DNA from: a virus
Taxonomy: Duplodnaviria > Heunggongvirae > Uroviricota > Caudoviricetes
Direction: 5' to 3' (one strand)
DNA: 44,108 nucleotides
IMG/VR virus record: IMGVR_UViG_2529292919_000018
Shown here piece after piece: positions 9,113-9,955 of the stretch. The notes under the pieces are model-generated. The model searched no databases. It was given only the letters and a program-made list of their open reading frames with translations, and had not been told where the DNA came from. Numbering within the stretch: the stretch's first letter is position 1; the number at the start of each line of letters is the position of its first letter. A program made the position numbers and the translations under genes.

Positions 9113-9955
9113 ATGAGGAAAAAATCGTTTGGACGTTGCCCGTTTGATTTCGACGAAGATGTAAAAAAAATAGCCGCGATAAATAAATATATCCATGCGA
9201 AATTTGAGAGGCATAAAAATAAAATAGATAACCTAAAGGGGGTGGAACAAAAATTGATGGTTTTACATTACTTTAATGTACTGAATGAACTTAGTAATCA
9301 GGCTATATTTTCTTTGAGTACCGGAGCCTTTTCAGCATCGGAAGTATTAACTAGAGTTATAATGGAACAGGCTGCCAATCAATTTTATATAGCAATTGAT
9401 GATGGAAAAAATGCACAAGCATTACTCAAGGGTAGTAAGAAATTAGTTCATAGTAATGGGAAACGGTGGCTGGAGTGTTTAAAATCCAAAGAAATGACTA
9501 ATCCAGCAGCAGATGAAAGGATTCGTATCGGAAAAGAGCTAACTGATATGTTTAATAGATTGTGGCCAAATACACCTGAATATCCTGGAACCAAAAAGCT
9601 TTTCGAAGTAATTGGCTGGGAAACACACTATCATGCCTATTACGTCCCTCTTTGTGATTCAATACATACATTCTCTGATGATATGGCAAATATAGTATCT
9701 CTATATAATGCAATCCAAAGCGATAAAACTACTGCTATCGAACTCACTCTTGCAGTTAAACAAGAAAATAAACGGCTGGCAATTTATAATGTCGTAATTG
9801 CTATTGGCCTGCGGTGTGAGGCCTTAGTAAATGTATTTAACTCTTTAGGTTATCGAGATATTATAACTGAAATGGCGCCAACAATAGATGCAGTCAACCA
9901 GATTATAATTCGATATGATGATTTCGAACATTCCAGAATTTTTTATTGTCAATAA
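9113..9955 (+). CDS. Hypothetical 280-aa protein, no recognised family; candidate accessory/defence cargo
   Basis: AT-rich ORF with strong RBS; C-terminal RYDDFEH fits an R-x5-H pattern (weak HEPN-like hint only); lies in low-GC island next to ATPase-HNH pair. Confidence 0.65.
   Translation: MRKKSFGRCPFDFDEDVKKIAAINKYIHAKFERHKNKIDNLKGVEQKLMVLHYFNVLNELSNQAIFSLSTGAFSASEVLTRVIMEQAANQFYIAIDDGKNAQALLKGSKKLVHSNGKRWLECLKSKEMTNPAADERIRIGKELTDMFNRLWPNTPEYPGTKKLFEVIGWETHYHAYYVPLCDSIHTFSDDMANIVSLYNAIQSDKTTAIELTLAVKQENKRLAIYNVVIAIGLRCEALVNVFNSLGYRDIITEMAPTIDAVNQIIIRYDDFEHSRIFYCQ

Follow-up and report, generated by a model that had tools for sequence, protein, structure and literature searches.

Among the described systems closest to the gene analysed here are those built on HEPN domains, which are defined by a four-helix bundle with an Rx4-6H motif at the end of helix 3, carry in helix 2 a second acidic residue, usually as E-x3-[KR], and often have an insert separating helix 2 from helix 3 (Anantharaman et al. 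2013, PMC3710099). Departures from this motif are described within the superfamily, as the Parep1/8 and c2405 families retain the histidine without the arginine, and the AbiV and AF0298-like families use an alternative histidine (PMC3710099). Among single-gene abortive infection (Abi) and defence proteins, AbiV, AbiD/F, AbiJ, AbiU2 and RnlA/LsoA are stand-alone genes on mobile elements or prophages that encode a HEPN-type fold, and in these traits they resemble the present gene. The explanation that we consider most likely, with a probability of roughly 40%, is that it encodes a single-gene effector of Abi type, for anti-phage defence or inter-phage exclusion, in which R81, E85 and H185 form a nuclease-type pocket.

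The window, that is, the whole stretch of 44,108 nucleotides that was analysed, is a lambdoid prophage of Rac-like type (cI, cro, YdaT, O, P ... hokD, rem, RusA), and its DNA around the gene is almost identical to a prophage of EPEC E2348/69. An earlier note, made from the letters of this DNA, had described a well-formed open reading frame behind a consensus promoter and ribosome binding site (RBS) in an AT-rich island, and this description is borne out in part. The gene occupies 9113..9955 on the + strand; it opens with ATG, closes with TAA and has 280 codons for 280 amino acids. Its AGGAGG RBS lies at 9102-9107, 5 nt 5' of the ATG, and the arrangement AGGAGG-N5-ATG occurs three times in the 44-kb window against an expectation of 0.27. 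GC content is 0.33-0.41 across 9001-13000 compared to 0.46-0.55 on the flanks. The promoter holds up only in part: a TATAAT hexamer is indeed present at 9069-9074, but a sigma-70 promoter scan omits this site, finding no -35 hexamer with at least 4/6 matches. The hexamer alone is not above chance, since the window contains 14 copies where 15.3 are expected and 11 of the 14 fall inside the AT-rich island, including five within the open reading frame itself. Its invariance across all five diverged cassette variants that were compared (E. coli lambdoid, two E. coli P2-like, Buttiauxella and “Bacterium BS0013”) counts in favour of a promoter. As the reading frame is intact in all five of these variants, with dN/dS values of 0.20-0.37 among them, sequence comparison indicates that this is a functional coding gene under purifying selection.

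The gene also belongs to a family, which the earlier note had been unable to assign by eye. The protein matches Pfam DUF5677 (PF18928) over residues 49-195 with 37.5 bits against a gathering cut-off of 27.1 (E 3.3e-9), matches phrog_4167 (PHROG 4167, “unknown function”) over its full length (E 1e-176), and is labelled “DUF5677 domain-containing protein” in RefSeq in every copy. These matches place it solidly, at the level of sequence, in an existing and uncharacterised family, of which it is a plain member with no differing feature. As the family has no assigned function, membership gives no mechanism, and the literature searched (a library of 8 million papers, just two of them naming the family) gave neither a function or fold assignment for DUF5677 nor experimental evidence for a function of any DUF5677 protein. 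An exhaustive phmmer search of 1.84 billion cluster representatives returned only 53 proteins at E<=1e-3, mostly single-domain proteins of 270-300 amino acids, and the DUF5677 model matches 44 of 44 aligned full-length relatives (best E 3.4e-20). Word-indexed homologue searches recovered 6 and 21 proteins, too few for covariation-based contact prediction. No NCBIfam model matched the protein, none of the 5027 PADLOC-DB v2 models did so at E<=1, and tblastn in 50,697 isolated phage genomes gave no match to the gene.

The structure prediction that had been proposed as a check gave a HEPN-like model. Built by AF2 from the alignment of 44 relatives (pLDDT 94.8, pTM 0.91), the model is all-helical with ten helices and contains a predicted four-helix up-down bundle that superposes on solved HEPN domains. 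The best match is AF0298 (2hsb), with a score of 11.8 and 107/126 residues at 2.1 A, followed by TT1696 (1ufb, 10.6), the sacsin HEPN domain (3o10, 10.6), ST0689 (1wol, 10.4) and 4nqf (10.0), while Csm6, HEPN toxins, AbiA, AbiV and LsoA score 7.7-9.1. When the model is restricted to residues 41-152, every HEPN match disappears. For the Foldseek side of the same check, searching the PDB returned nothing significant, only generic helical matches (best E 0.1). At the sequence level, none of the 44 DUF5677 members matched a Pfam HEPN-clan family at E<=1, and a PDB profile search found no relevant match with the full profile and none with the 98-166 insert spliced out. A sequence link to the c2405 family, in which the His is kept and the Arg lost, was considered and rejected, as hhalign of the DUF5677 family against the CFT073 c2405 HEPN protein (taken as the ComEA/HhH protein seven genes after tcpC) gave a probability of 0.4%. 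The conserved core, at about residues 44-203, is predicted from the model to be a HEPN-like four-helix bundle with a large helical insert. Compared to the minimal HEPN-T domains (AF0298 2hsb, TT1696 1ufb, ST0689 1wol and sacsin 3o10), the protein is about twice the size and has in addition a helix at its N-terminus, a helical insert of 70 residues and, at its C-terminus, two long helices. It lacks a conserved Rx4-6H, and no similarity to the HEPN superfamily could be detected in sequence or profile. The correspondence of residues drawn below is a putative one.

In the register that we favour on the basis of the model, helix 1 spans residues 44-69, helix 2 residues 73-94, the insert residues 99-166, helix 3 residues 170-186, ending at H185 before a kink, and helix 4 residues 188-203. 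This register is favoured because it coincides with the Pfam limits of 49-195, because an E-x3-R fits, and because the 41-152 model loses the HEPN matches. The segment 99-166 fits the usual HEPN insert between helices 2 and 3 (PMC3710099), and E77-x3-R81, on helix 73-94, corresponds to the E-x3-[KR] of what would be helix 2. Alternatively, judging by sequence, R81 might itself be the canonical HEPN arginine, paired with position 86; an R81-x4-H86 (RVxxEH) is found in 17/44 relatives, and the window protein has Q86. At the junction of helices 3 and 4 there is no canonical Rx4-6H, and the positions -4 to -6 from H185 (S/C, A/L and P/S) are never basic. Because the test for a canonical Rx4-6H fails under either register, the protein is, on its modelled fold, described here as HEPN-like and not as a HEPN RNase.

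Conservation across the 44 relatives points to a different set of residues. Five are invariant (R81, E85, F164, Y173 and H185), a further nine are kept in at least 90% (E77, L79, N89, W119, P158, S183, D190, N193 and Y225), and D182 is kept in 84%; position 77 is E in 41 and D in three, and R81 is found in 44/44. A stripe E77-x3-R81-x3-E85-x3-N89 (codons at 9341..9379, + strand) runs along one face of helix 73-94, and D182-S183-x-H185 followed by D190 and N193 (codons at 9656..9691, + strand) lies at the end of helix 170-186. We propose that these form an atypical putative catalytic centre, R81/E85 with E77 and N89 on one side and H185 with D182, S183, D190 and N193 on the other, in which R81 and H185 would be adjacent in three dimensions. 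The C-terminal RYDDFEH, which the earlier note had offered as a possible HEPN motif of the form R-x5-H, does exist at R267-H273 (9911..9931, + strand). It is not a family motif, however, as it sits in a C-terminal helix beyond the Pfam domain, with R267 kept in 7/44 and H273 in 6/44 relatives. Position 268 within it is Tyr in the window protein and His in 37/44 relatives, so that the E. coli subfamily has lost two of the commoner DUF5677 histidines (positions 86 and 268).

A pocket without the canonical motif need not be catalytic. Since many HEPN domains that lack Rx4-6H are modules that bind a ligand or substrate (PMC3710099) and non-defence morons also occupy prophage accessory slots (PMC9122126), the protein could be a HEPN-like binder without nuclease activity, acting as an anti-defence factor, a superinfection-exclusion or regulatory moron, a sensor or an adaptor. 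In a preprint on Bacillota, five of nine candidates protected E. faecalis from six phages, and the sole DUF5677 open reading frame tested there was not one of the five (PMC12632615), which also fits such a binder. Against this, conservation of the nine polar residues (E, R, E, N, D, S, H, D, N) reaches 84-100% among relatives whose identity is only 15-30%, which resembles a catalytic or ligand pocket more than a partner-specific interface, and the genomes in which the distant homologues are found differ greatly and show no constant partner or target system. We regard a purely binding role as unlikely, though deserving of serious consideration, and prefer the nuclease-type effector.

The gene travels with its own upstream region. 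A 200-nt leader (8913..9112, + strand), which holds the TATAAT and the AGGAGG, is present in every cassette copy in a five-way alignment, and leader plus open reading frame constitute the minimal unit in all of them; in one of these loci, L026, cassette homology begins exactly at TCTAYCTACTCAACCTGTCAG. The constancy of this leader (5/5 contexts) raises the possibility that the island or prophage is stabilised by a toxin or addiction module, in which the protein would be a HEPN-like toxin restrained by an unrecognised antitoxin such as a leader RNA, after the pattern of type III AbiV. Toxin-antitoxin systems often contain HEPN toxins, AbiV combines a HEPN RNase with an antitoxin made of RNA (bioRxiv 10.1101/2024.05.05.592566), one distant homologue adjoins ParDE, and a hok/sok addiction locus lies within the island. 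Yet the leader carries neither the repeat array nor the structured RNA that a type III antitoxin beside its toxin gene should have: no tandem repeats were found within 8600-10100, its predicted RNA fold is unremarkable on either strand (z -0.6 and -0.5), and an Rfam search gave no match. Its identity to S88 (87-93%) is no higher than the conservation of the coding sequence. No conserved small open reading frame accompanies the gene in the cassette, and none was seen beside the distant homologues. The leader was consequently rejected as an RNA gene or antitoxin, and a toxin or addiction role for the protein appears improbable. Two further observations concern the leader and the hok/sok locus. 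A 7-bp stem, AATCTCC ... GGAGATT at 9059-9095, flanks the TATAAT hexamer; when the window is compared to S88, one of its pairs differs on both sides (C-G to T-A) and another is broken, and the AATCTCC/GGAGATT core of its arms is shared with the palindrome at the recombinase described below. A full-length sok antisense RNA (RF01794, 112 bits) lies at 13134-13300, and an IS481-family element (13244-14332) is inserted at hok/sok, its transposase split into reading frames 13244-14056 and 14050-14331 by a 1-nt indel near 14078 relative to E2348/69.

The leader and gene form part of a mobile cassette that also includes a small tyrosine recombinase and spans 8796..10545 on the + strand, with about 89-92% identity to its counterparts in P2-like prophages from other E. 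coli. Its limits were set from positions 197-1946 of the query 8600-13240, which match 38 genomes such as S88, and from a pairwise alignment with S88. In the window the recombinase is a pseudogene (10061..10581, + strand) that has suffered an approximately 82-nt deletion and frameshifts relative to intact copies, and RefSeq remarks on it as “frameshifted; internal stop”. It is intact at 194-200 amino acids in S88 and E. coli 042, as determined by alignment and tblastn; intact copies lie at L007 4055-4657, L002 7945-8529 and L034-L038 4016-4618, and the S88 protein matches Pfam Phage_integrase with an E-value of 4e-17. In one P2-like prophage the recombinase is down to 35 codons while the DUF5677 gene is retained, a loss which shows that this gene can stand by itself.

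A perfect 13-nt inverted repeat, CATACTCAAATCT-N13-AGATTTGAGTATG (10025..10063), ends on the ATG of the recombinase and spans its GGAG RBS, and it is kept in E. coli 042 and, with 15-nt arms, in S88. The stretch that 042 has in common with the window opens about 18 nt upstream of this repeat (query position 1408), and the homology shared by different cargo contexts begins just 5' of the palindrome. The palindrome may sequester the RBS and start codon as a translational lock, or it may be a binding or core site for the recombinase. A second motif, CAGACTGTCAG(N)TTTGAT, is found once in the leader of the window (8890-8907) and three times in the S88 P2-like cassette (L002 6627-6659, 6748-6796 and 9058-9106; two direct and one inverted). 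The CAGACTGTCAG copies bracket the whole S88 cassette, and the cassette homology in L026 breaks beside the motif. These may be recombination or junction sites; as a second end of the cassette in the window the motif was rejected, since the only good copy there is the one at 8890. The S88 cassette holds one extra gene, on the - strand at L002 8552-8929 and absent from the window, for a hydrophobic, probably membrane-bound protein of 124/125 amino acids with no significant Pfam match and weak matches to membrane families at E>=0.14.

Such an arrangement could mean that the DUF5677 protein is an accessory factor of the recombinase, affecting its directionality, site choice or cassette mobility. 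The two genes adjoin in E. coli, Buttiauxella and Pseudomonas fluorescens, and DUF5677 is significantly enriched in Bacillota beside serine recombinases that mark defence loci (PMC12632615); the CAGACTGTCAG repeats flanking the S88 cassette and the palindrome at the recombinase start would also fit. The recombinase, however, occurs in 16% of complete E. coli genomes (870 of 5426), against 57 genomes with the DUF5677 gene, and elsewhere the neighbours of the recombinase are quite different. In addition, the DUF5677 gene is intact where the recombinase has been pseudogenised, as in the window, or deleted, and most of the distant homologues have no recombinase nearby. A role in assisting the recombinase is accordingly very doubtful, and we take the gene to be more probably its cargo, as the effector reading holds.

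The 57 genomes fall into two groups. In 19 the whole island is present, comprising the DUF5677 gene, the recombinase pseudogene and Septu, and the other 38 carry a variant of the DUF5677 gene at about 92%. The pair downstream in the window, which the earlier note had called Septu-like, proved to be true Septu, with PtuA at 10994-12367 (+ strand, PADLOC PDLC00283, E 2e-165) and PtuB at 12345-12989 (+ strand, PDLC00325, E 1e-83). That note had also taken the proximity of this pair as a clue to defence, and a third component or regulator of Septu might be expected to lie, as the DUF5677 gene does, about 1 kb upstream of ptuA, on the same strand and within the same low-GC island, in an arrangement fixed in 19 genomes. 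The clue does not survive comparison across genomes. The recombinase pseudogene separates the gene from ptuA, linkage to Septu is seen in only 19/57 genomes, the Septu part of the island has no match in any genome beyond these 19, and those loci that were inspected among the 38 with the variant are Septu-free P2-like prophages. Outside the window island, neither PtuA nor PtuB was found close to any DUF5677 homologue, and no PADLOC Septu model matches the DUF5677 protein. The Septu neighbourhood is incidental: Septu is an independent system and an island neighbour linked in one island lineage, and the idea of a Septu component is largely refuted.

The cassette occupies different slots in different phages. 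In the window it lies between the replication genes and hok/sok; in the P2-like prophages of S88 and L006 it lies, without Septu, between tail-fibre assembly and tail sheath. We take the latter to be the P2 Z/fun slot, which is reportedly the subject of Nilsson et al. 2004. The S88 copy was also considered for the P2 hotspot of Rousset et al. and rejected, as that hotspot is gpA-gpQ (PMC9122126). The only plasmid match was an 8461-bp circle (NZ_CP148379.1) built from the window prophage segment, which contains just the cI-cro-YdaT-O-P module, the DUF5677/Septu island and hokD-rem, with no IS element; this circle is either an assembly artefact or an excised, self-replicating prophage mini-circle.

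The positional evidence for a defence role is nevertheless better than the earlier note knew, and it comes from the recombinase. Across its 870 genomes the recombinase is found in prophages, in Ag43/GTPase islands and on a plasmid, always between changing cargo genes, with neighbours that vary from site to site. In E. coli 042 its neighbour is PD-T7-1 (E 9e-157), in the Rac-like prophage slot upstream of hokD as in the window, and PD-T7-1 is a validated defence gene (Vassallo et al. 2022, PMC9519451); the slot of the DUF5677 gene is therefore one that elsewhere holds validated defence cargo. Other neighbours include HEC-08/DUF3644, a dGTPase with type I RM, an annotated restriction endonuclease and several unannotated proteins, and many are not known defence genes. 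PD-T7-1, the dGTPase and HEC-08 occupy the DUF5677 position directly beside the approximately 200-aa recombinase, and as these proteins are unrelated to DUF5677 the association is guilt by position only. In prophages, islands and plasmids alike, the recombinase seems to mark small defence hotspots. The more distant DUF5677 homologues, at 15-45% identity, are solitary, and no partner gene is conserved beside them. In a Pseudomonas integrative and conjugative element (TrbL, NikA/MobC) the homologue adjoins a CBASS-like SMODS+AGS_C/SLATT_6 pair, and in P. fluorescens it adjoins a homologous small recombinase and DUF6119 (Pseudomonas neighbourhoods at L032 6938-8488 and L029 6966-8887). Further homologues lie beside ParDE, beside RhuM, inside a Zot/secretin filamentous prophage and, in Aeromonas, between housekeeping genes.

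In total, we infer a defence role, a nuclease chemistry and a trigger for the protein that can be put together as follows. A soluble, stand-alone, all-helical protein, carried as cargo of a recombinase-marked cassette in the accessory, defence-rich slots that temperate phages have, would be produced from its own leader in the lysogen and would be harmless at rest. Upon infection it would cut RNA or another nucleic acid, and the cleavage would be carried out by the atypical centre of R81/E85 and H185 in place of a canonical Rx4-6H. Counted in favour of this effector are the DUF5677 match, the dN/dS values, the predicted fold, the conserved residues and the HEPN register, together with the P2-like cassettes, the neighbours of the recombinase, the settings of the distant homologues and the enrichment in Bacillota (PMC12632615). 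Counted against it are the E. faecalis result, the PADLOC and NCBIfam negatives, the lack of a sequence-level HEPN link, the absent Rx4-6H, the possible register of R81 with position 86, the lack of a tblastn match in phages and the many recombinase neighbours that are not defence genes. The earlier suggestion of a single-gene defence or Abi candidate, possibly of HEPN type, thus survives as a conclusion, while the evidence then offered for it, the R-x5-H and the proximity of Septu, does not.

The DUF5677 gene is a reasonable anti-phage candidate, for reasons other than those first given. If the HEPN-like assignment and the defence role both hold, it would be a HEPN-type single-gene Abi system without the canonical motif. 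Should the gene protect against phages, this would give a function to a Pfam DUF family with 53 cluster representatives at E<=1e-3 and a wider Bacillota family, and it would provide a further HEPN-type fold that operates without the textbook Rx4-6H. A more far-reaching proposal, which we hold to be rather unlikely as a whole, is that DUF5677 is both a single-gene anti-phage family with a re-wired centre, the Arg on helix 2 and a lone His where helix 3 ends, and the cargo of an integron-like cassette exchange by the recombinase. The recombinase, whose start codon carries a palindromic site, would then shuffle defence genes among P2-like phages, lambdoid prophages, genomic islands and plasmids. 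The approximately 200-aa recombinase could also act as a guide to new defence genes, just as serine recombinases do among Bacillota. It reliably flags small slots of varying content, with PD-T7-1, dGTPase, HEC-08, Septu and a large number of unannotated genes among their cargo, and may be the more useful lead.
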